A DNA stretch of 44,005 nt from a virus (IMGVR_UViG_2579778573_000005), one strand, 5' to 3'; positions 3,903 to 44,005 are shown, counted from the first letter of the stretch. Numbers and translations are program-made. Notes: generated from the letters alone by a model not told the origin.

Positions 3903-4415
3903 TTAATATACATGGAGAATACGAGCAACGCCCGCAAGAACGTCAACACCATTAATTACTCGTTTCATTTTTGCAGGATGAATCTCGTAAATAATTTTTC
4001 CATTTTGAACTCGTTTATAATAGCTCGGCGCAATCGTTACTGATTGCCCAACTGCTGATTTTGAATCAGTCCCCTGCGCGTCATCAGTAATCGCCGTAAT
4101 AAGCCCCTCATATGTATCAATACGTTCAAAATTGACACCGTAATTGTCAGTATATGCACTTCGAATTTCGAACCTTGTTTTAGCACCTGGTATTAATCCC
4201 AAATACCCCATCACACCAGAATCGGAGCCAGAGACTTTAAAACTGGCTGACATTTTCTCCATTCCCCCGTCCAGAGTGATAGCTGTATCCATAGCGCCCG
4301 TCTTAAAATCATCTTCGATTATTTTCATATCGACGGGAGTGTATTCAGTGCAATTTAAAACTCGTTCTCCCTGGACGAACAACGCAAATGCACGATAGGT
4401 GTTACTATCTGCCAT
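3903..4415 (-). CDS. Tail tube protein (P2 FII-like)
   Basis: Track ORF 170 aa directly after the sheath gene. Confidence 0.6.
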   Translation of the reverse strand: MADSNTYRAFALFVQGERVLNCTEYTPVDMKIIEDDFKTGAMDTAITLDGGMEKMSASFKVSGSDSGVMGYLGLIPGAKTRFEIRSAYTDNYGVNFERIDTYEGLITAITDDAQGTDSKSAVGQSVTIAPSYYKRVQNGKIIYEIHPAKMKRVINGVDVLAGVARILHVY

Positions 4416-8126: not shown

Positions 8127-9047
8127 CTACCCCATTTGCACGCTGAGTTTGATTTCTGTGCAGTACGGAGCCTGCCCGACGCCAGCGATCACATCCTCTG
8201 TTGGCGATATCAGAATCACACGTTCAGTGCCGTCACGATGTATCGCGTCGTAAATTCCTGACAGAGCTGCCGTCGCTCCGATTTTATGTTGCGTATCCAC
8301 ATATATCGCCAAATCGCTCTGAGCACCGTTAAGCAAAACGTTCTGGTCGGGTCCGAGCCCGGCTACGATAACGGCCTCAACCCGGTAATTCAGGTTCGAC
8401 GCAGGTTTTACAGTCACGAAATCAGTCAGCGGTCGAGTATCGTCAGGAGACAGGGCCGCATTCACTGTATTCAGTAGTGATTGAGGCGGAGTGCCGTCGC
8501 CGGTTCGCGACAAGACATACATATCGACGTATCCAGGCTGGGTCACCGGCGGGCCGTACGCCTGAGCTGACAGAACGTCGGGATCACTCGACAGCGCGAA
8601 ATAGTTATAGGCGTTCGTACTGCCGGCAGTATTCCGCGCATACCATGATAGCTGTATTCGGTGTCGATACTCGTCGTCACTCTCGTAAACAGCCTCAGTC
8701 GGGGGAATTACATCGGGATTAGCTGGCGTTATCAACAGCCGCAGGCAGTCAAAATTAGCGCCAATCTGGTCGAGGTCACTCCCCTTTGCAAACGCGAGCA
8801 ATACAGCGAGCATCCCCTGATTTACCCGAGCTGTAATAATGATTTCTCTGTATGCAACTATTTCCAGCAGTTTAACGGCCGGGTCTGACTCCAGGAGTGC
8901 GTTAAATTGTGGATATAATATCTGCAGCTCTGACAGTAGATTAGATTTAACATCTGAAAATAACGGGGTTTTAACGAATGCTGGCGGCGGCAGCAGACTC
9001 ATATCAATAGTTTTCACTATCGAATTCTGAACTGTTGATGTTATCAA
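8127..9047 (-). CDS. Baseplate protein J-like
   Basis: Track ORF 306 aa; position and size match P2 J. Confidence 0.75.
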   Translation of the reverse strand: MITSTVQNSIVKTIDMSLLPPPAFVKTPLFSDVKSNLLSELQILYPQFNALLESDPAVKLLEIVAYREIIITARVNQGMLAVLLAFAKGSDLDQIGANFDCLRLLITPANPDVIPPTEAVYESDDEYRHRIQLSWYARNTAGSTNAYNYFALSSDPDVLSAQAYGPPVTQPGYVDMYVLSRTGDGTPPQSLLNTVNAALSPDDTRPLTDFVTVKPASNLNYRVEAVIVAGLGPDQNVLLNGAQSDLAIYVDTQHKIGATAALSGIYDAIHRDGTERVILISPTEDVIAGVGQAPYCTEIKLSVQMG

Positions 9048-9433
9048 AATATCAGCTCCATATTATTAAACTCTAATCGCTGTTGTGTTTCGATATCTGT
9101 TGCGATAATTAATATTGTTATTTTCCCGATATCCACTGCTAACACATTTATTCTGTCAATTCTGACGCGTGGTTCCCATCGTGCTATTGCGCCAGCGCTT
9201 TCCATGATTATTCGCATAGCAAGCGACGGATCTGTGGGATTATCAACAAGATCAAATAATTTGCTGCCATATTCCGGCAGCATTACACGCGTCCCCAGCG
9301 GGGTCGTTAAAATATCAACGATAGACTGACGAATGTGATCAGTCCCCGATAAAAGTTTACCGGTGTTACGGTCCATTCCAAGCATCTTTACGCCATTGGT
9401 TGGTTCGGTTGTTGAGTTTCCCCGTCCGGACAT
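9044..9433 (-). CDS. Baseplate protein W-like (gp25 family)
   Basis: Track ORF 129 aa; central region resembles P2 W; true start probably the internal Met near 9385. Confidence 0.75.
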   Translation of the reverse strand: MSGRGNSTTEPTNGVKMLGMDRNTGKLLSGTDHIRQSIVDILTTPLGTRVMLPEYGSKLFDLVDNPTDPSLAMRIIMESAGAIARWEPRVRIDRINVLAVDIGKITILIIATDIETQQRLEFNNMELIF

Positions 9434-10305
9434 ATATGAGTGTGTCCGTTATACGTTGTGCGGACTTCAGTTATTGTGCCTTGTCGGTCCTGCACCTCTT
9501 GCCCTGCTAACACACTACCGCGAGTTGTGATATTACCTGTTCCACCGTTATCTCCAGTGACAGAAATATCGTTACGGAATGTCGCTAATTTATCTACTAC
9601 TAATGTCTCGGTAATATGCGTTGGACCAGCTAGTGTTATACCACCCGGAGCCCACGCGCTGATTGTTTGAGCTGTCAGCGATATTCTGTTCGCAGCAGTA
9701 ACACTAACAGAACTCGTTGCTATAACGTTCACTAAATCAGCATGTGCGTTAATTGTATCTGTCGCTGTGACATTAATAATATCAGCGTCTGCGTTAATTA
9801 ATTTCCCACCATGGATATTAACTACATTTTCGCTATTAATAGTAACATCTGCGCGTCCAAATATTTCTATTTCAGACTCACCGAGTATTTTTACCACGCC
9901 GTCCGGTACGCCCTGCCATGTCAGAGTGTGATTTTTTGTGTTATACGTCATCGTAGCCCCGTCACAGTATGCAGTGACATGATCATGGGGGTCATTGCTT
10001 GGCGGAGCTTTGTCGTCAATGTGCAGCCCGAGCATAACTACACCGTTCCGCGTATCCCCACCCTCAGAAACAACAGTAACGGGATCGCCCACTGATGGTG
10101 CGCTCCAGTCGACGCGTTCTGAGGTGGCGTGAGTAAACCACTGCAGCCAGCCTGACTGGTGTTCGCCACCAAATGAGACTCGGCAGCGTGGAGGATTCAT
10201 TTTAACTGCAGCTATCGTGCCGCGTTTAACTGCGTCACGCAGCCTGCGCGCGTTCTCCGCTGCAGCATATTCATCGTCCGATTGGGCCATAATAGTCGCC
10301 CTCAT
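9388..10305 (-). CDS. Baseplate spike protein V-like
   Basis: Track ORF 305 aa; N-terminal region and C-terminal His-rich tip resemble P2 gpV. Confidence 0.8.
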   Translation of the reverse strand: MRATIMAQSDDEYAAAENARRLRDAVKRGTIAAVKMNPPRCRVSFGGEHQSGWLQWFTHATSERVDWSAPSVGDPVTVVSEGGDTRNGVVMLGLHIDDKAPPSNDPHDHVTAYCDGATMTYNTKNHTLTWQGVPDGVVKILGESEIEIFGRADVTINSENVVNIHGGKLINADADIINVTATDTINAHADLVNVIATSSVSVTAANRISLTAQTISAWAPGGITLAGPTHITETLVVDKLATFRNDISVTGDNGGTGNITTRGSVLAGQEVQDRQGTITEVRTTYNGHTHICPDGETQQPNQPMA

Positions 10306-10807
10306 GTTCTGCGCCGATATCTGGTGCTATTCCGACGTATATATTTTTCAGGGTCCCCTGTGAGGGATAATCGAAAATATCTGGACCAACGCCTACAACC
10401 TGCGTGAACGACACGCACTGAACTGAATGCGAACCGACTGACTGCCCGTTTTTAATCCAGTCGCACGGTTCCGCGTCGCTGAATTTTGCCGGTTTAGTTC
10501 CGGGACCGAACATTCGCCCATTGATCCAGCTCGTCATATAGAGCGCTGCATTCTGCGATTTCAGTCCGTACTGATCAGCTGCAAATTCACGCAGCAAATA
10601 CAAATTACACGACAGCTCGACTGACTGAATTGAGCCTGGAACCGATTCGTCACTCTGTGACCAGTTGCTGATTTCCAGGAACAGAGCTGGCGTTTCAAAT
10701 CCAGCCGGAATTTCCGGATAAATTCCGAATGTTTTGATGAACGGTATTTGTAAAACCGCGCCTTTAACGCGATCAAGATATTCGTCAAATGCATCCAGTC
10801 CGCTCAT
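10271..10807 (-). CDS. Putative tail completion protein (positional)
   Basis: Track ORF 178 aa between head genes and baseplate V. Confidence 0.35.
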   Translation of the reverse strand: MSGLDAFDEYLDRVKGAVLQIPFIKTFGIYPEIPAGFETPALFLEISNWSQSDESVPGSIQSVELSCNLYLLREFAADQYGLKSQNAALYMTSWINGRMFGPGTKPAKFSDAEPCDWIKNGQSVGSHSVQCVSFTQVVGVGPDIFDYPSQGTLKNIYVGIAPDIGAEHEGDYYGPIGR

Positions 10808-11484
10808 AATCGTTTACCTGTTTTTGGGTCTACGTGGACATTACCTTTCACGCGACCGCGCAAATCTTTCTCAAAAAAGCCCATAAAAACAGGGCCAATG
10901 TTTTCAAAAATATAATCATCGATAGCATCCTCCAGCGCGTCGTGCACAGGTACGCGAGCCTCTTCGATTCCTCCGCGATCCAGTCGAATCCAGACACTTT
11001 TCGCACCGTAGCGTTTCGCTACGAATGAATCGGGCCAACTCATCATCGCCAGCCCTGCACTTTTGGGTGTAAAAGTTGCCCCTCTAGCGCCTTTTTTGGT
11101 TTTCAAAAACAGGCCGGTCTCAAGATCGCGAGGCTGTTTTTGCCTCCGTGGATTTTGTAATCGCCCCTTTAGCTCAGATACCCGGAAATCATTCAGACCG
11201 TACCAGAGCTTGGCGCTGCTCAGGTCTCCTGCCCCTTCTTTTGTAAAATTACGGCGCTTAATGAACGGCTTGATTCGTTTATCTACGGCCTTATGATTTT
11301 TAGCTGCCAGTGCAGTCAAAATCATTCCTGCTGAAATTCGGTGCATATGTTTTGCAGTTCGGTTCAGCGCCCTGTTGTATACCATTAACATTTGATGTTG
11401 CGTCGCGCTGATTTCGACTCTGAGCTGCTCCAGCGCCGAAACATCGATATCGAACATCTGCGCGTTACTACGTAAATCGGCCAC
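10804..11484 (-). CDS. Putative virion morphogenesis / tail completion protein
   Basis: Track ORF 226 aa; operon position. Confidence 0.4.
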   Translation of the reverse strand: MADLRSNAQMFDIDVSALEQLRVEISATQHQMLMVYNRALNRTAKHMHRISAGMILTALAAKNHKAVDKRIKPFIKRRNFTKEGAGDLSSAKLWYGLNDFRVSELKGRLQNPRRQKQPRDLETGLFLKTKKGARGATFTPKSAGLAMMSWPDSFVAKRYGAKSVWIRLDRGGIEEARVPVHDALEDAIDDYIFENIGPVFMGFFEKDLRGRVKGNVHVDPKTGKRL

Positions 11485-11515
11485 GGTTCCCCCTTAAGTG
11501 GGACCGAGGTCCCAC

Positions 11516-11896
11516 TTAGTATTTTGAATACTCGCTGTTTTCGCTGGACGTGTGAGGCTCTAAAAAAATATTCGTGAGCCCTGTGCCATCAGGTTGAGGC
11601 TCTTTAACCACGTAATCGGTCCAGCCAGACCAGGTAACAGAGCCGTCAGGTTCGATGCTGCGCTGCTTTGGAACCTGGACGACGTCACGCGCAACAACGC
11701 CAGCGACGTCGTCCGAGAGCGCCGTCAGGCTCGTTACTGTACCGGTAATAAAACCAGCGTGAGGAACGTCAACGCGCGCGTAAGGCTCGTTGAAAATAGC
11801 GATAATGGGGTCGGTTTTACCGCGTAATTTAACGGGCCGTCCCCACTCACGGATCATCTCCTCGTCGCCGGCCCGGAGGTCATCGTAGTAGCTCAT
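11516..11896 (-). CDS. Putative head-tail joining protein
   Basis: Track ORF 126 aa downstream of capsid gene. Confidence 0.3.
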   Translation of the reverse strand: MSYYDDLRAGDEEMIREWGRPVKLRGKTDPIIAIFNEPYARVDVPHAGFITGTVTSLTALSDDVAGVVARDVVQVPKQRSIEPDGSVTWSGWTDYVVKEPQPDGTGLTNIFLEPHTSSENSEYSKY

Positions 11897-12312
11897 AGAG
11901 CGTAAACGTGATCAGCTGCGATAAGGTCTGCGACCTCCGGTGAATCAACAACAATTTCACGGCCTGCGGCAACAATCTCGCGAACGCGACGCCCGTTCAC
12001 GTAGTGATAAACGTCCAGCGTGTTACGCAACTTGACGCGGCGCGTAGCCGGTGCGAGCTCCTGCTCTTGTGACTGTGAAACGATAGCGCTCGCGATTGAT
12101 TGAGCGAGTTCATTATCGGTCCCGGACGCAGTATTCACTGTAATCTCGATGCCTCCCGCGTCACCGGATTGCTCGTTCAGAATATCGAGCTCTGACTCAG
12201 CGCCGGCAACGATTGATTCCAGTTCCGCAATAGTCCCGCTGCGCGGTAATTCGCGACCGAGCTGAGCGCTCAGATCGTCAATACGCGCCAGCAATTCTGT
12301 TTTTGTGCTCAT
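11893..12312 (-). CDS. Head-associated protein of unknown function
   Basis: Track ORF 139 aa directly after major capsid gene. Confidence 0.3.
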   Translation of the reverse strand: MSTKTELLARIDDLSAQLGRELPRSGTIAELESIVAGAESELDILNEQSGDAGGIEITVNTASGTDNELAQSIASAIVSQSQEQELAPATRRVKLRNTLDVYHYVNGRRVREIVAAGREIVVDSPEVADLIAADHVYAL

Positions 12313-36288: not shown

Positions 36289-36346
36289 AGCGTCTCCTGT
36301 CGCTAAAAATTGATTACGCTTAATCAGATTTGGGGCTCACCAACAG

Positions 36347-38450: not shown

Positions 38451-40667
38451 ATGACCATTTTTAACGGCTTGTTAGAAGCGAAAAAAGGCGCGCTCAAAAA
38501 CGGCGCGATCCCGGCGCTGGCCATCGCCATCGCCGCCCCTAACAAAAAAGTTGCCGAGAACATCATCATCGGCAAATTGTGGGAAGCCTACCCTGACCAC
38601 GGCGACAACTATTTCAAACCTAAAATCTGGGAAGATGCCCCGGGCCAACCGCGCCCAGGCGTCGGTGAGTTTGATGAGACGTTTGCCACAGAACACAGTT
38701 TTGATGGCGAAAAATGGGTAGTTAACACTCCTGTTGATTCAGATTGCAGTTCAGCAGATATCTCACAGGTTAGCGACCTGATGAAACTGCCGGCTCGTGA
38801 ACGATTCGCCGCCGTTCTGCTGTTCAGCCACGACGCCAACGAAGTCGACAGTGAATTGCTTGTGCAGACGCGTGAATACCTGGAGATGCTCGATAACAGT
38901 GATACTGACAGTGAGGATGAGGTTGACGCGTTTAACCGCATCGTTCTTGATGCCATGGTGGCGTGTAAGCCCATCGAGTACATGCATATTGCTGGATTGA
39001 ATAATCTGGTACATGCAATTTTGGCAAGTTGCGATACCCAGGAACAAAACCCGACCAGTTGGACTATCTCCAAATTTATAAAAAAATGGGTAGAGAATCC
39101 CGGTAAACGAGATGAAATGCTGCCGGAGGTAAAACCAGAAACAGCATCCGCACGTCCTTACAAACAGACTCACGCCACTCTGGATCGTGAAATTGCCTGC
39201 GCCCTGTTACCTGTTGCCCCGGAAAAAATCACCCCCAGCATCCTGAAAGCGGCAGACGAAATAATCAGTCAGGACAGGGAAGATTTTAAACGCTGGTCAA
39301 TGGCCTTGCGCACAACGGATCAGATCCTTGCCTATGACCGCGCATCAGTATTCGGTGTTATTCAGAGCGCCCCCGCAAAAGACACGTACCACTTCCCACA
39401 ATCCCTGCGCAGTCACATCGACAACTGGCTGCAAGCTAACGGGCAGCGTGATGCAAATGCTGTTGAAGAGAAGCCAAAGGAAGCAGCACCCAAGGATGAT
39501 GTAAAAGTCACCAACCACGGCGGCGGACGATTCTCAATTGATGGGATGATGTCAGAAACACCCTCAAATCAGGGCGAAAAAAGCGAAGCTGCAAATGCTG
39601 GAGAACGTAGTTTGCAGCAGTTGCGTGAGCAGTTTGTCACGCCTCGCCATGTGTATGACGTACCTGAAAATAACGCCGTATCACAGAGGGAACCTGCAGC
39701 TATTACCCTGGCAGAAGAGACTCCTCCACAAGAACAACTTAGCGAGCAGGTAAAGGATCTGGTGCAGAACGTTGACGCGCTGGTTGAGCGGATCCATGCC
39801 GAAGAGCACAAGCGGCAGAATGCAATCTCAGCTATCGAAACGGAGTTAAAGGACTCAGATGACACGGATAACCTGGCATTGTGGAAGAACGTATTCAAAA
39901 CCGATGAGCGCTTCACCAGTGCTTTCTCTCAGAATGGCGGCGGCACATCCATCAACGGCACTTATATAGCGATGAAAGCGACTCGCGAATTTGGGCCATT
40001 TGGTATTGGCTGGGGGGTAGAGGTGCTGGAGGAGCGCTTTGATAAAGGCGCACCAATAGTTCGCAAAAAACAGGTTGGTGAAAAAATAGAATGGGATCTG
40101 ATTCAAGACGGTGTTGGCGGGTACCTATGTGAAATGCACCACACCATGAAAGTGAGAGTCTGGTACATATTGAATGGGGTACGCGGTGAGTCCGAGGCTT
40201 ACGGATGCACACCTTATATCTACGACACTAAATACGGACCAACAAGCGACGGCGAAGCACCGAAGAAATCCTGGACGGATGCTGTTAAGAAAGCGCTATC
40301 CCCTCTCGGATTCAGCGCCGATATTTTCATGGGCCTGTACGACAATCCGGAATACCGCCAGAGGAATAAAGCTGAGTTTGATATCAAGAATGCCAGCGAG
40401 AATGCGGAAGATGCTACCCGTCTGCGTAAGGAACTGGATGAGAAGCTTATCAACGTTGCCAATACGCTGGCCGCCGCGGTAACCGCCAACGAAGTAAACA
40501 AGGTATTTGGCCTCATCGCCCGCGAAGTGGATGTACACAGGAAAGCAGCGGAAACCAAAGGCGATAAAGAATATTCATCGTATCTGGGATCACGTCTGCG
40601 CCGTATCACCGACATTAAAACTGAACGCCTCGCCGCCCTTACCGCTGCACAGGAGCAAACAGCATGA
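38451..40667 (+). CDS. Large early protein of unknown function
   Basis: Track ORF 738 aa; GAGGAAAGACCA RBS module; acidic N-terminal half; no family recognised by eye. Confidence 0.5.
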   Translation: MTIFNGLLEAKKGALKNGAIPALAIAIAAPNKKVAENIIIGKLWEAYPDHGDNYFKPKIWEDAPGQPRPGVGEFDETFATEHSFDGEKWVVNTPVDSDCSSADISQVSDLMKLPARERFAAVLLFSHDANEVDSELLVQTREYLEMLDNSDTDSEDEVDAFNRIVLDAMVACKPIEYMHIAGLNNLVHAILASCDTQEQNPTSWTISKFIKKWVENPGKRDEMLPEVKPETASARPYKQTHATLDREIACALLPVAPEKITPSILKAADEIISQDREDFKRWSMALRTTDQILAYDRASVFGVIQSAPAKDTYHFPQSLRSHIDNWLQANGQRDANAVEEKPKEAAPKDDVKVTNHGGGRFSIDGMMSETPSNQGEKSEAANAGERSLQQLREQFVTPRHVYDVPENNAVSQREPAAITLAEETPPQEQLSEQVKDLVQNVDALVERIHAEEHKRQNAISAIETELKDSDDTDNLALWKNVFKTDERFTSAFSQNGGGTSINGTYIAMKATREFGPFGIGWGVEVLEERFDKGAPIVRKKQVGEKIEWDLIQDGVGGYLCEMHHTMKVRVWYILNGVRGESEAYGCTPYIYDTKYGPTSDGEAPKKSWTDAVKKALSPLGFSADIFMGLYDNPEYRQRNKAEFDIKNASENAEDATRLRKELDEKLINVANTLAAAVTANEVNKVFGLIAREVDVHRKAAETKGDKEYSSYLGSRLRRITDIKTERLAALTAAQEQTA

Positions 40668-41233
40668 GCACTGCTATCGCTATTGCAAAAGAATATGCCA
40701 GTCTGATTGACCTGTTAGAAACCGCCGATGAACTGACGCCAGAGATGATCGCCGACACGCTTGAAGGCATGGAAGGAGAACTGGGAGACAAACTGGACGC
40801 CATGATGGTCATCTGCCGTAATTTACAGGGCAATGCCAATACCTGCGCTGAAGAAATGTCTCGCCTGGCAACCCGTAAGACGTCCTTTGAAGGCAAGGAA
40901 AAAGCAATTCGAAAGCATATGCTCACCTGCCTGCAAGCTGCTGGCCTGGATAAACTGAAAACCGCAAAAAACACATTTACTGATGCACAGGGGGCTATCC
41001 GGGTAATTATCGATAGCAAAGATAAGATCCCGGATGAGTATGAGGGCGTGTCACTTGTTGATGTAGAAACGGTTATTACACCAAACAAGCGAGCCATTAA
41101 AGAAGTGATTGAATCTGCGGAGGCGGTTGCCGCCGAAATACTGGCGCGTGGAGAAACACCACCAGCCGAGTTATTAAACCCGGTACCAGGCGCACATCTG
41201 GAACGCGGCGAACGGTCACTGAGGATACGCTAA
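40664..41233 (+). CDS. Gp157-like protein (siphovirus Gp157 family resemblance)
   Basis: Track ORF 189 aa; N-terminal pattern EYASLIDLLE...ADTLEGMEGE. Confidence 0.4.
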   Translation: MSTAIAIAKEYASLIDLLETADELTPEMIADTLEGMEGELGDKLDAMMVICRNLQGNANTCAEEMSRLATRKTSFEGKEKAIRKHMLTCLQAAGLDKLKTAKNTFTDAQGAIRVIIDSKDKIPDEYEGVSLVDVETVITPNKRAIKEVIESAEAVAAEILARGETPPAELLNPVPGAHLERGERSLRIR

Positions 41234-41415
41234 TGCTTAAACTCACATTAAAGCGTGGTGACGCGGTTCACCTGGTACTTGCCGATGGTACCAATGGCAT
41301 TATTGAAGCACGGAGCCGCTGCGAACTTGGGCTACACCTGCCAGAAAACATTAAGGTCACTCGGGAGAAATCGGCATTCACCCCACAAGAACTGATTACG
41401 CCTAATCAGAAATAA
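41233..41415 (+). CDS. CsrA/RsmA-like small protein
   Basis: Track ORF 60 aa, translationally coupled (TAATG); ungapped alignment to E. coli CsrA matches L2, L4, T5, G9, G33, P37, V42, R44, E45. Confidence 0.4.
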   Translation: MLKLTLKRGDAVHLVLADGTNGIIEARSRCELGLHLPENIKVTREKSAFTPQELITPNQK

Positions 41416-41464
41416 AAACTCACCATCGCTAGCATTGCGATTCACCAGACACCGGAGGATCACA

Positions 41465-41689
41465 ATGCTGCGATGGCAACCGGGAGCAACTCTGCTCTCC
41501 GCATTTGATATCAAAATTGGTCGACTGTCGGCCAGCGTCAGGAAACAGACTTTGACCGAGTCTGATATTGCCCGTGCCTGCCAGAAGGCAGATGACGCAA
41601 TAAGCTACATAATGAGGAAAGACCATGAAAAGCGATCACGACATAATCACCAGAGAAGAAATGGTCGAGCTGACGGGAAGCCCACTTAA
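41465..41689 (+). CDS. Hypothetical small protein
   Basis: Track ORF 41435-41689; ATG 41465 with GGAGGA RBS; 3' end overlaps next gene. Confidence 0.3.
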   Translation: MLRWQPGATLLSAFDIKIGRLSASVRKQTLTESDIARACQKADDAISYIMRKDHEKRSRHNHQRRNGRADGKPT

Positions 41690-41888
41690 ATCAAAGCAAT
41701 GTGAGGCTCTTCGCCGGGCTGGAATTTTCTTCATGGAAAGGGCTGACGGACACCCAAAAACAACCTGGGGCCATTTCATGAACCCAATAAAATTTCGCAA
41801 TTTACAGGAGGTGACGACGCGAAAAGATGATGAACCTGATTTTGGAGCAATATTTAATGGCCGGAAAGAGAAAGAACCCAGCAGATAA
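41625..41888 (+). CDS. DUF4224-like protein upstream of integrase (possible excisionase/directionality factor)
   Basis: Track ORF 87 aa; IITREEMVELTG...RRAGIFF pattern; GAGGAAAGACC RBS module. Confidence 0.5.
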   Translation: MKSDHDIITREEMVELTGSPLKSKQCEALRRAGIFFMERADGHPKTTWGHFMNPIKFRNLQEVTTRKDDEPDFGAIFNGRKEKEPSR

Positions 41889-42873
41889 CTGGATGCCGCC
41901 TCGTGTTTACCAGGGCAAAGCGGCCTACGAATTCAGGAATAAAGATAACAAAGCGATACGCCTGTGCGCATTGGATGCACCACGATCAGCCGTATGGCTG
42001 GCATATGAAAAAGCGGTCGGTGACGAAAAAGAAAGAAATACTTTTCAGGCGCTCACGGAACAATTCATGACCTCCCCTGATTTTATGGATTTGGCAGTCG
42101 AAACCCGGAAAGACTACACAAAATATTCCGGAAAAGTTCTGCCTGTCTTCGGGAAGATCGACCCGGATAAAATCAAACCTGAACATATTCGGCGCTATAT
42201 GGATCAACGCGGTTTATCAAGCCGAACTCAGGCAAACAGGGAAAAAAGCTTTATGTCCCGGGTATTCCGTTGGGGTTATGAACGAGGTTATGTTCAGAGG
42301 AATCCTTGTCAGGGAGTTAAACAGTTTAAAGAGAAAGCTCGCGAACGTTATATTACGGATGAAGAATATCAGGCCGTTTATGAAGTGTCTCCTGATGTTG
42401 TTCGCGTAGCAATGGAGATTGCCTACTTATGCGTGGCCAGACAGAGTGATGTACTTTCATTGCAGAAAGACCAGCTGTTCGATTCCGGGATCTACATTCG
42501 TCAGGGAAAAACCGGCGTTAAGCAAATCAAAGCCTGGTCGCCTCGTCTGCAGAAAGCGATAGCTCTGGCTCGTTCTCTGCCATTAAAAACGGGAATCAGT
42601 AGCCTGTTTGTGATTCATCAAACTACCGGTGGCAAGTATACCCGTGATGGTTTTAACTCTCGTTGGCGTGATGTCAAAGCGGCAGCACAGGAAAAATATC
42701 CTCATCTGCAAATAGACTTCACATTTCATGATCTGAAAGCAAAAGGTATCTCTGATCTGGAAGGCAGCCTGGAAGAGAAGCAAGCAATTTCCGGGCATAA
42801 GAACCCGCGACAGACAGCAGCATATGACCGGAAAGTTAAAGTAGTGCCCGTAGTTGGTGGCCAGAGAAAATGA
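41857..42873 (+). CDS. int: Tyrosine integrase
   Basis: Track ORF 41827-42873; likely start ATG 41857; ends 130 bp from the tRNA-Leu 3' end. Confidence 0.8.
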   Translation: MAGKRKNPADNWMPPRVYQGKAAYEFRNKDNKAIRLCALDAPRSAVWLAYEKAVGDEKERNTFQALTEQFMTSPDFMDLAVETRKDYTKYSGKVLPVFGKIDPDKIKPEHIRRYMDQRGLSSRTQANREKSFMSRVFRWGYERGYVQRNPCQGVKQFKEKARERYITDEEYQAVYEVSPDVVRVAMEIAYLCVARQSDVLSLQKDQLFDSGIYIRQGKTGVKQIKAWSPRLQKAIALARSLPLKTGISSLFVIHQTTGGKYTRDGFNSRWRDVKAAAQEKYPHLQIDFTFHDLKAKGISDLEGSLEEKQAISGHKNPRQTAAYDRKVKVVPVVGGQRK

Positions 42874-43003: not shown

Positions 43004-43090
43004 TGGTACCCGGAGCGGGACTTGAACCCGCACAGCGCGAACGCCGAGGGATTTTAAATCCCTTGTGTCTACCGATTCCACCATCCGGGC
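43004..43090 (-). tRNA. leuZ: tRNA-Leu (anticodon UAA)
   Basis: 87-nt reverse complement reads GCCCGGATGGTGGAATCGGTAGACACAAGGGATTTAAAATCCC...CCA with long variable arm. Confidence 0.9.
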
Positions 43091-43102
43091 TCGGGAAAAA
43101 AG

Positions 43103-43176
43103 TGGAGGCGCGTTCCGGAGTCGAACCGGACTAGACGGATTTGCAATCCGCTACATAACCGCTTTGTTAACGCGCC
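43103..43176 (-). tRNA. cysT: tRNA-Cys (anticodon GCA)
   Basis: 74-nt reverse complement reads GGCGCGTTAACAAAGCGG...GATTGCAAATC...TCCA. Confidence 0.9.
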
Positions 43177-43229
43177 AAATTCTTCAGGCCTTTCAGCCAG
43201 ACATCCGCTGACGCCGATGCCTTTTAAAC

Positions 43230-43305
<76 letters not shown>

Positions 43306-43378
43306 ATTCATCAAGCAATCAGTTAATCACTTGATTTTATTATCGTCTGGCAATCAGTGCCGCCGTTCGATGCGTTGC

Positions 43379-43406
43379 ATTCTACTTACCTGGCGCGATG
43401 AGTCAA
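43379..43406 (-). promoter_or_regulatory. Promoter of the tRNA-Gly/Cys/Leu operon
   Basis: Minus strand TTGACT-16-TAGAAT ~75 bp upstream of tRNA-Gly. Confidence 0.55.
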
Positions 43407-43456
43407 CGATATTTTTCACCACTTTTGATCGTTTGCTGAAAATTGCGCCGAAACGA

Positions 43457-44005
43457 TCACTGATCAAGCAAATCTGCACGCGCAGCGCTCAAATATTGCA
43501 ACATTGACCACAGAGTCAGTACCGCAGCCACAAAGAAAAGTGCAATACCGGCGTACTCAACCCAAATATTCGGACGCCACAGCAGCCATGCCAACGCCAC
43601 CATCTGGGCAGTGGTTTTCACTTTTCCAATCCAGGAGACAGCCACGCTACTGCGTTTACCCAACTCCGCCATCCATTCGCGTAGCGCAGAAATAATAATT
43701 TCACGGGCGATCATCGTTGCTGCCGGTAAGGTCACCCACCAGCTGTGGTAATGCTCGGTTACCAGCACCATGGCGATAGCCACGAGAACTTTATCTGCGA
43801 CAGGGTCAAGGAAAGCACCAAACCGGGTACTCTGATTCCAGCGGCGTGCCAGAAAACCATCGAACCAGTCAGTCACCGCCGCGACGCAGAAAATGAGCGC
43901 GGCGGCAAACGGCGACCAGGTGACAGGCAAATAAAAGACCAATACAAAGAATGGGATAAGGATGACACGGAACAGTGTAAGCAACGTAGGGATATTAAAT
44001 TGCAT
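43457..44005 (-). CDS. pgsA: CDP-diacylglycerol--glycerol-3-phosphate 3-phosphatidyltransferase (host)
   Basis: Track ORF 182 aa, complete; CDP-alcohol phosphotransferase motif D..DG.LAR.....[11 protein letters not shown]. Confidence 0.9.

Follow-up and report, generated by a model that had tools for sequence, protein, structure and literature searches.

CsrA is a master regulator of E. coli that acts post-transcriptionally, and phages and plasmids are known to carry csrA alleles. The protein has a β-β-β-β-β-α architecture in which β1 and β5 of opposite subunits bind RNA, with L4 and R44 being the residues most critical for this binding (PMC7652899). Phage-borne csrA alleles are an established phenomenon, and 30 of them have been collected through PSI-BLAST taken to convergence, a set from which Pectobacterium phage ZF40 is absent (Sobrero & Valverde 2020, PMC7366521). 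Supplementary Table 7 of that report contains a divergent group composed of the proteins of Bcep22, BcepIL02, DC1, Parlo, PEp14, Pavtok, SopranoGao_25, Skulduggery and Ralstonia GP4. Clear CsrA homologues, retaining 48-91% identity to E. coli CsrA, are present in 88 phage records. Those of the Pseudomonas F116/phi297 RsmM type and of Vibrio VvAW1 reside in temperate phages, as does the gene described here, and the VvAW1 csrA likewise follows an exonuclease gene in the early region. While these proteins are annotated as CsrA, the protein described here escapes BLAST-level searches. A literature search turned up no experimental work on phage CsrA-like proteins. Finding a CsrA on a phage would not in itself be novel; the novelty lies in an unannotated and widespread family that appears to belong among these proteins.

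The stretch of DNA analyzed here (the window, 44,005 nucleotides, IMGVR_UViG_2579778573_000005) is an E. coli prophage whose integration site adjoins tRNA-Leu/Cys/Gly-pgsA-uvrC-uvrY. An initial annotation had proposed that a small gene in its early-left operon encodes a CsrA/RsmA-like protein. By our analysis, this protein belongs to a family, PHROG 2482, that is probably a new branch of the CsrA fold and has diverged strongly; its closest detectable relatives by profile comparison are the Bcep22/Parlo-type regulators.

A constrained 60-codon gene at the end of a three-gene block

The small gene occupies positions 41233-41415 (+ strand, 60 codons) and encodes MLKLTLKRGDAVHLVLADGTNGIIEARSRCELGLHLPENIKVTREKSAFTPQELITPNQK. 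The 60-codon reading frame given by the initial annotation agrees with both the ORF call and the purifying selection described below, and the TAATG junction that it had reported with a Gp157-like gene is also present. The ATG of the small gene (41233-41235) and the TAA stop of the Gp157 gene (41231-41233) have one base in common, and the upstream gene (40664-41233, + strand) is identified as Sipho_Gp157 / Mu Gam-like by Pfam PF05565 (E = 9e-29) and by PHROG 253. Reading of the sequence places a Shine-Dalgarno motif, GAGGA (41221-41225, + strand), within the 3' end of the Gp157 gene at a distance of 7 nt from the ATG. The block begins with a gene for a 738-aa YdfE/RecE-like protein (38451-40667, + strand; PHROG 2489 'exonuclease'), on whose homologues the Pfam domains YdfE_N/YdfE_C are precomputed and whose end overlaps the Gp157 start by 4 nt.

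The small protein matches the PHROG 2482 profile over its full length (E = 2.3e-36, residues 1-60 against profile positions 1-61). This family is annotated without function, and the PGAP name for WP_000916334.1 is hypothetical protein. Eight homologue comparisons were used to evaluate selection on the gene; dN/dS was 0.10-0.20 in the four for which it was computable, synonymous sites being saturated in the remaining four. These low ratios mark the small protein as constrained, and both the length and the start of the gene are kept down to 37% identity. The small gene is therefore real and its protein is under purifying selection. It is the last cistron of the YdfE/RecE-like - Gp157 - small-gene block and is translated from the early-left transcript.

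Comparison with canonical CsrA

An ungapped comparison with E. coli CsrA (a sequence identical to PDB 1y00) gave identities at M1, L2, L4, T5, G9, G33, P37, V42, R44, E45 and Q52. All nine positions listed by the initial annotation are thereby reproduced, M1 and Q52 being additional, and the agreement exceeds chance by shuffling. Shuffling the sequence 100,000 times while keeping M1 in place yielded 4.9 identities on average; at least 11 identities had P = 0.004, and the BLOSUM62 score had P = 1.3e-4. These values are valid for one pre-specified comparison, CsrA having been chosen here after the match was seen. The small protein thus resembles canonical CsrA/RsmA/RsmE (PF02599; PDB 1y00, 2jpp) in length, in those nine identical residues and in the L4/R44 pair, yet it differs in lacking R6 and the C-terminal helix of CsrA and in showing no significant direct sequence or fold match.

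The HMM search that had been put forward as a check of the CsrA assignment gave a match below the threshold. Pfam CsrA (PF02599) is the sole Pfam match of the small protein, in the register 1-45/1-45, with a score of 13.1 bits (E = 0.097) against a gathering threshold of 27 bits, a threshold that is reached by neither the small protein nor any other member of the PHROG 2482 family. The same profile is the only or best Pfam match, in exact register, for 10 of 21 family members at 12-19.6 bits, the best of these scores corresponding to E = 9e-4, while the six most divergent members gave no Pfam CsrA match. An NCBIfam search of the small protein returned nothing, BLASTP against E. coli CsrA gave no alignment at E <= 100, and neither phmmer nor the family HMM recovered a CsrA among PDB sequences. 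When the family HMM was run against 1.84e9 representative proteins, the 16 matches were all family members or repeats and included no CsrA. Purpose-built local HMMs ranked the small ORF first of the 331 ORFs in the window, but at only about 7 bits, a score that carries little weight by itself.

Profile-profile comparison was carried out with hhalign against a canonical CsrA alignment of 35 sequences, made up of PDB, Bacillaceae and gammaproteobacterial entries together with six clear phage CsrAs. The latter were added for diversity, as the gammaproteobacterial copies are 85-100% identical and the Bacillaceae and gammaproteobacterial set collapses to three clusters at 80% identity. The family matched this alignment with 9% probability (P = 0.0036); its score was reached by 3 of 400 column shuffles, and P = 0.0075 was the lowest value among 40 real decoy profiles. 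In these comparisons the direct link between the PHROG 2482 family and canonical CsrA is not significant, and the direct tests taken alone would lead to rejecting the CsrA interpretation.

These results bear most heavily on the reading that the small protein is a functional CsrA/RsmA orthologue, capable of complementing a csrA mutant and of being titrated by CsrB/CsrC. Such an orthologue would explain the CsrA-like length and the identical L2, L4, T5, V42, R44 and E45 on the β1 and β5 edges. Nevertheless, we consider it very improbable given the Pfam score (13.1 versus 27 bits) and the loss of R6, I47 and the whole helix. The clear phage CsrAs, at 48-91% identity to E. coli CsrA, do not include the small protein, and PSI-BLAST taken to convergence over viruses did not retrieve its ZF40 homologue, gp05 (PMC7366521).

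Relationship to Bcep22/Parlo-type phage regulators

The divergent Bcep22-like group behaves differently from the PHROG 2482 family with respect to canonical CsrA. Pfam CsrA scores on Parlo, DC1, Bcep22 and GP4 are 29.8-39 bits, above the cut-off, while those of PEp14 (19.2 bits) and SopranoGao (14.4 bits) fall in the same range as the PHROG 2482 family. The profile of the group matches solved RsmE (E = 1.6e-9) and CsrA (E = 2e-7), and hhalign aligns it to canonical CsrA with 97% probability (P about 1e-11). PF02599 is found on most of the 120 relatives listed among the 454 matches of the group, several of which are named CsrA-like regulator. Judged by these profile matches, the Bcep22-like group belongs to CsrA.

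In hhalign, the PHROG 2482 family in turn aligns with the Bcep22-like group at a probability of 89-90% (P = 1.6e-6 to 2.3e-6, score about 32), and a 102-sequence version of the group gave 90.1%. The column-shuffle null of this match had a mean of 9.9, a standard deviation of 2.3 and a maximum of 18.3, none of 400 shuffles reaching the real score, and 40 real 60-column decoy profiles made from syntenic phage proteins scored at most 13.0. Two segments align separately and collinearly, columns 1-14 with P about 1e-6 and columns 28-48 (β4-β5) with P about 3e-4 to 1e-3, the first 14 residues supplying most of the score. At the level of single sequences, BLASTP of the small protein against Parlo gave E = 0.002 with 27% identity over 49 residues. 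By this evidence the Bcep22/Parlo-type regulators are the closest detectable relatives of the PHROG 2482 family.

Comparison of the two groups demonstrates several common features. Both consist of proteins of about 60-65 aa with N-termini of the form MLKL(D/T)(I/L)(K/R)xG(E/D)xhxh (MLKLDIKPGESVKIGD... in the Bcep22-like group and MLKLTLKRGDAVHVVLPDG... in the PHROG 2482 family), both have a hydrophobic residue at the position of CsrA R6 followed by a basic residue at position 7, and both share a ...L.h.hP..V.h.R segment containing the R44 equivalent, with neither retaining the canonical EEIY helix. In a joint alignment of 125 sequences G9 never varies, and conservation reaches at least 90% at L2, L32 and R44. 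Despite these likenesses, pairwise identity between the groups is only 13-29%. The PHROG 2482 family, unlike the Bcep22-like group, has a β2-β3 connection that is 4 residues longer, an invariant D18 and a near-invariant G19, and it carries P at position 37, where the Bcep22-like group mostly has D. Genomic context also differs. In the two relatives examined (about 60-kb phages), the Bcep22-like gene is flanked by the portal/scaffold and major capsid genes, while the small gene lies in the early-left recombination/excision region between Gp157 and xis-int and not in a late structural module. The location of these relatives in the late structural module is therefore uninformative on the small gene.

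The link through the Bcep22-like group changes the reading of the direct tests. The initial annotation had held that the absence of any CsrA family hit, combined with a predicted fold unlike CsrA, would speak against its assignment; read narrowly, the direct searches come close to that outcome, which is averted by the bridge through the Bcep22-like group. Of the label "CsrA/RsmA-like" itself, remote homology or a shared fold probably stands, based on the hhalign bridge and the five-strand model described below, whereas the fuller reading, a CsrA/RsmA family member that would retune translation, is not borne out by the PF02599 threshold, the helix or R6. We regard remote homology of the PHROG 2482 family to CsrA as fairly likely.

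Predicted fold and CsrA RNA-binding residues

Two AlphaFold2 models of the small protein were generated. The family-only alignment gave a pLDDT of 76.7 and four strands. The joint alignment gave a pLDDT of 86.5 (39 residues at 90 or above) and five strands (2-6, 11-15, 21-25, 30-34 and 41-45), a model that leans on the CsrA-family rows by which that alignment is dominated; the fifth strand, 41-45, appears only with this alignment. We take these five strand positions to coincide with β1-β5 of CsrA. Residues 1-46 are collinear with the CsrA β1-β5 core, and the Pfam and hhalign matches to CsrA end at residue 45-48. Neither model contains a C-terminal helix, and fold searches with models built without the joint alignment gave no match to solved CsrA structures. 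The CsrA fold for which the initial annotation proposed a structure prediction may be recovered in part, five strands being obtained with the joint alignment while the C-terminal helix is missing and the fold searches are negative.

The small protein retains L2, L4 and R44. Among 29 family members R44 is present in 27, and position 4 is L in 23 and I in 2, with L4 varying in the divergent members. The position of CsrA R6 is occupied by L in the small protein and in 25 of the 29 members, I47 is missing, and G33 varies among family members.

The reading of the small protein as a diverged CsrA-fold protein, closest to the Bcep22/Parlo type and RNA-binding by inference, is in our estimate evenly poised between right and wrong. 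The RNA-binding function taken by itself, for which the argument comes from sequence, is possible at somewhat less than even weight. If the reading holds, the protein would form an interdigitated homodimer as CsrA does, and the paired β1/β5 edges would bind single-stranded GGA-type purine motifs in RNA. Being made from the early-left transcript, it would act post-transcriptionally after infection or induction on host Csr targets, phage leaders or both. The nearest candidate target on the phage would be a hairpin that begins 8 nt past the small-gene stop and lies ahead of orf54-xis-int.

Gene neighborhood and distribution

In all loci recovered with DNA, the Gp157 gene is directly 5' of the small gene and the gene order is YdfE/RecE-like (about 700 aa), Gp157, small gene, xis and int, an order that extends to the most divergent members (37-39% identity). 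In most loci, an ORF of about 54-69 aa also separates xis from the small gene. In the window, the excisionase gene (DUF4224; 41625-41888, + strand) is supported by Pfam PF13986 (E = 1e-14) and PHROG 1266 excisionase, and the tyrosine integrase gene (41827-42873, + strand) by Pfam Phage_integrase and annotation, with the PGAP start lying about 30 nt further inside. Loci differ in their xis family (DUF4224, Exc or HTH_17), in the integrase and in the integration site. Because the block is invariant while xis, int and site vary, the small gene is linked to the YdfE-Gp157 block.

This linkage raises the question of whether the small protein could be an all-beta protein that is unrelated to CsrA or only convergent with it, serving as a protein-contact accessory of the YdfE/RecE-like - Gp157 recombination/end-protection module. 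The invariant YdfE-like - Gp157 - small-gene block amid changing xis/int families and integration sites would fit such a role, as would the overlap of the small-gene start with the Gp157 stop, the sub-threshold direct similarity to CsrA, the negative fold searches and weak SH3_2 matches in four members. Against it, the profile match to genuine phage proteins of the CsrA-like type greatly exceeds both shuffled and real nulls and comprises two collinear segments, and R44, L2 and G9 line up. The synteny is moreover compatible with an RNA-binding role, as the clear CsrA of Vibrio phage VvAW1 also adjoins an exonuclease gene. We therefore consider the accessory role, the main rival, unlikely, and the diverged CsrA fold is retained as the preferred reading. 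Other families considered from motif and gene position (AbrB/SpoVT, KOW/SH3 and the Lar/RalR type) yielded only the weak SH3_2 matches (E 0.04-0.23) and no other family.

Of 5426 complete E. coli genomes, 509 (about 9%) contain the 1.3-kb segment that surrounds the small gene, and in 426 of the 509 the match covers at least 80% of this segment. The PHROG 2482 family itself is small: it forms 29 clusters at 90% identity, and a search of 1.84e9 representative proteins gave about ten at 50% identity. Its members come from Salmonella, Klebsiella, Citrobacter, Enterobacter and Yokenella, as well as from Pectobacterium phage ZF40 (gp05, 43% identity) and two Stenotrophomonas phages, and the family is confined to temperate phages and prophages, most of them from Enterobacteriaceae. 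A megablast search against phage genomes gave no match, and a literature search found nothing on the small protein or on ZF40 gp05.

The family is invisible to standard annotation, with a PGAP name of 'hypothetical' and no Pfam assignment, even though about 9% of the complete E. coli genomes carry it, as do prophages of Salmonella, Klebsiella, Citrobacter, Enterobacter and Pectobacterium. If RNA binding proves true, many clinical strains would carry a second, helix-less CsrA-fold protein, turned on together with the early-left operon upon induction or infection. If the protein does not bind RNA, the family would illustrate the extent to which a sequence pattern like that of CsrA can diverge or be imitated.

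Putative regulatory elements within and downstream of the small gene

Phage lambda uses a CII-dependent pI/pRE logic, which YdaT carries out in Rac and CP-933P (PMC9986795, PMC11879457), and a pI-type promoter predicts an activator box upstream of xis-int. An inverted repeat resembling a YdaT box, CTGATTACGCCTAATCAG (41392-41409), lies within codons 54-59 of the small gene and agrees with the consensus at 10 of 12 positions. A second box, TTGATTACGCTTAATCAG (36310-36327), is located between the cro-like and ydaT-like genes and agrees at 11 of 12 positions; neither repeat is assigned to a strand. The YdaT box consensus is TTGATT-N6-AATCAA (PMC9986795, PMC11879457), and the DNA under the tail codons of the small gene forms a palindrome, TGATTA-N4-TAATCA, that matches it. 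A YdaT-family gene is annotated in the prophage. The putative int-side box at 41392-41409 is kept in 8 of 9 related loci, and both putative boxes are present in all related loci that span both regions.

A -10-like hexamer, TAGCAT (41430-41435, + strand), is positioned exactly 21 nt past the box at 41392-41409. Analysis of nine loci found a TAnnnT hexamer at exactly this distance from 12 of 13 putative YdaT boxes (TAAGCT/TAAATT on the cro side and TAGCAT/TAACAT/TACCGT on the int side), a spacing that places the box center near -41.5. The second box (36310-36327), with TAAGCT located 21 nt downstream, is pRE-like. The YdaT box that adjoins ydaT in Rac switches on a reverse promoter from which the repressor gene is transcribed (PMC9986795, PMC11879457). 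The locus likewise resembles the Rac/CP-933P YdaT logic in having a box next to ydaT that is oriented towards the repressor gene, and it parallels lambda pI in having a second putative box upstream of xis-int with the same box-to-hexamer spacing. By analogy, the box at 36310-36327 would be the counterpart of pRE and the box inside the small gene the counterpart of pI, the latter driving a predicted YdaT-dependent pI-like promoter with a start near 41442. We did not find an int-side YdaT box described in the two reports on YdaT (PMC9986795, PMC11879457). The likeness to lambda CII/YdaT logic concerns these neighboring regulatory elements and not the small protein.

The int-side box also affects how the C-terminal tail of the small protein is to be read. 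Each residue of the conserved LIxxNQK tail is encoded by one codon in 8-9 of 9 loci, while other conserved residues use 2-4 codons. The conserved tail is thus largely a DNA-level constraint and not to be read as a protein motif; its interpretation as a protein docking motif was down-weighted in view of the synonymous-site conservation and the YdaT box. Because the helix is absent and the tail is largely imposed by the YdaT operator, only the β-core (approximately residues 1-46) should be read as the functional protein module.

Taken to its extreme, the same observation would mean that the reading frame is kept mainly by overlapping regulatory DNA or RNA (the YdaT box, the promoter and the hairpin) and that the protein has little function, a view that the single-codon use of I55, N58, Q59 and K60 on the YdaT-box palindrome in 8-9 of 9 loci would support. 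We find this most improbable for the gene as a whole, since constraint on the nucleotides themselves is confined to about 18 nt at the 3' end, conserved residues elsewhere use 2-4 synonymous codons with a whole-gene dN/dS of 0.10-0.20, and length and start are kept down to 37% identity.

The RNA downstream of the small gene contains a conserved hairpin (41423-41476, + strand) that starts 8 nt past the small-gene stop and pairs the Shine-Dalgarno sequence (GGAGGA) and AUG of orf54. Folding of RNA 41405-41480 produced a hairpin of 23-24 bp with an MFE of -30.4 kcal/mol (z = -7.5), whose 3' arm holds both the GGAGGA and the AUG (41465). The hairpin was obtained in all 11 related loci folded, with differing sequences and with compensatory changes in 6 of 18 consensus pairs, and Rfam contains no known RNA family at this position. 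Most loci have an ACGGAG- or GGGGA-type Shine-Dalgarno sequence in or beside the hairpin loop, an appearance that any Shine-Dalgarno sequence could give. The hairpin is a plausible nearest RNA target for a CsrA-like protein.

The -10 hexamer (41430-41435) sits in the 5' arm of the hairpin, and a transcript from approximately 41442 would therefore be without that arm, leaving the orf54 Shine-Dalgarno sequence and AUG free. On early-left read-through RNA, as judged from sequence and spacing, the same elements would be closed in the hairpin. A more speculative model combines these elements with the small protein, which would gate the decisions on lysis or lysogeny and on excision by binding the GGA/Shine-Dalgarno hairpin loop and thereby setting orf54-xis-int translation from read-through RNA, from which YdaT-driven transcripts would escape. 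We consider this model improbable, along with its alternative, in which the small protein would heterodimerize with host CsrA and poison one RNA-binding face. The small gene is interwoven with an apparent int/xis control region consisting of the YdaT box, the -10 hexamer and the start-sequestering hairpin, and these interwoven elements offer a compact model for the separation of establishment from excision in YdaT-type lambdoid phages. The reading frame whose start is paired in the hairpin, orf54 (41465-41626, + strand, 54 aa), belongs to PHROG 27062, which is annotated without function. Its stop overlaps the start of xis (ATGA), and homologues are called in the related loci L091, L099, L102 and L104.

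Sequence constraint in the tail of the small gene

The last codons of the small gene (41233-41415) appear at the protein level as a conserved C-terminal motif. Within codons 55-60 (41395-41412), however, I55, N58, Q59 and K60 are each written with a single synonymous codon in 8-9 of the nine homologous loci, despite the saturation of synonymous sites outside this tail. Therefore, the C-terminal motif is, at least partly, the result of a DNA-level constraint. A YdaT-box-like palindrome of the TTGATT-N6-AATCAA type occupies 41392-41409, within codons 54-59 of the gene, and a second copy is located at 36310-36327, in the interval separating the cro-like gene from the ydaT-like gene. A TAnnnT hexamer follows each copy at a distance of exactly 21 nt, an arrangement found in 12 of 13 boxes from nine loci. 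Based on this layout, the boxes at 41392-41409 and 36310-36327 look like parts of pI-like and pRE-like promoters, respectively, which would need the CII analogue YdaT. No description of an int-side YdaT box was found in PMC9986795 or PMC11879457.

A conserved hairpin downstream of the small gene

A long and near-perfect RNA hairpin (41423-41476, plus strand; -30.4 kcal/mol, z = -7.5), for which an Rfam search matched no family, starts 8 nt downstream of the stop codon of the small gene. The hairpin is retained with compensatory changes in phage ZF40, BUCT708, Klebsiella, Salmonella and other loci. Base-paired within it are the Shine-Dalgarno sequence and AUG of the next open reading frame (41465-41626), whose stop codon overlaps the xis start. 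In P0001, a 91-residue metagenomic variant of the small protein, the normal stop codon is read through (...NQKKKLTIASIAIHQTPEDHNAAMATG...) into the hairpin region, which is probably explained by a point mutation or else by faulty assembly.

Genomic context

The first gene of the block (38451-40667, plus strand) encodes a 738-residue RecE-like protein assigned to PHROG 2489 (exonuclease). A Pfam search with this protein returned no match; its homologues match the YdfE_N and YdfE_C families together with a weak Exonuc_VIII match. This large and poorly understood protein is accompanied by a Gp157 partner in every case. The prophage adjoins tRNA-Leu(taa)/Cys/Gly-pgsA-uvrC-uvrY (43004-44005 of the window and beyond; 8405-11948 of locus L001), and an identical integration site is used in L091 and L104, two loci carrying the small-gene family. 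The uvrY product is the response regulator driving csrB/csrC. The putative CsrA-like gene thus lies approximately 5 kb from a Csr-system regulator gene, a proximity that is probably coincidental.

CsrA-type genes in other phages

The divergent Bcep22/Parlo-type gene (4001-4198; Parlo-type contigs L096 and L097 and Burkholderia prophage L098) has, in the two relatives examined, the portal/scaffold genes on one side and the gene for the major capsid protein on the other. This late structural context suggests a role in translation or assembly of the capsid module; literature searches found no experimental work on the gene. The Bcep22-like proteins of Skulduggery, Bcep22 and GP4 display weak N-terminal matches to FlbT, a flagellar translational regulator (PF07378, E down to 0.002), beside their CsrA matches, hinting that CsrA-like proteins and FlbT may have a b1-b2 motif in common. 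Vibrio phage VvAW1 (L085) encodes a clear CsrA homologue (151-363; 57% identity to E. coli CsrA) whose gene overlaps a DEDD exonuclease gene at the end of the latter, a further example of a CsrA-type gene joined to an early nuclease/recombination module.
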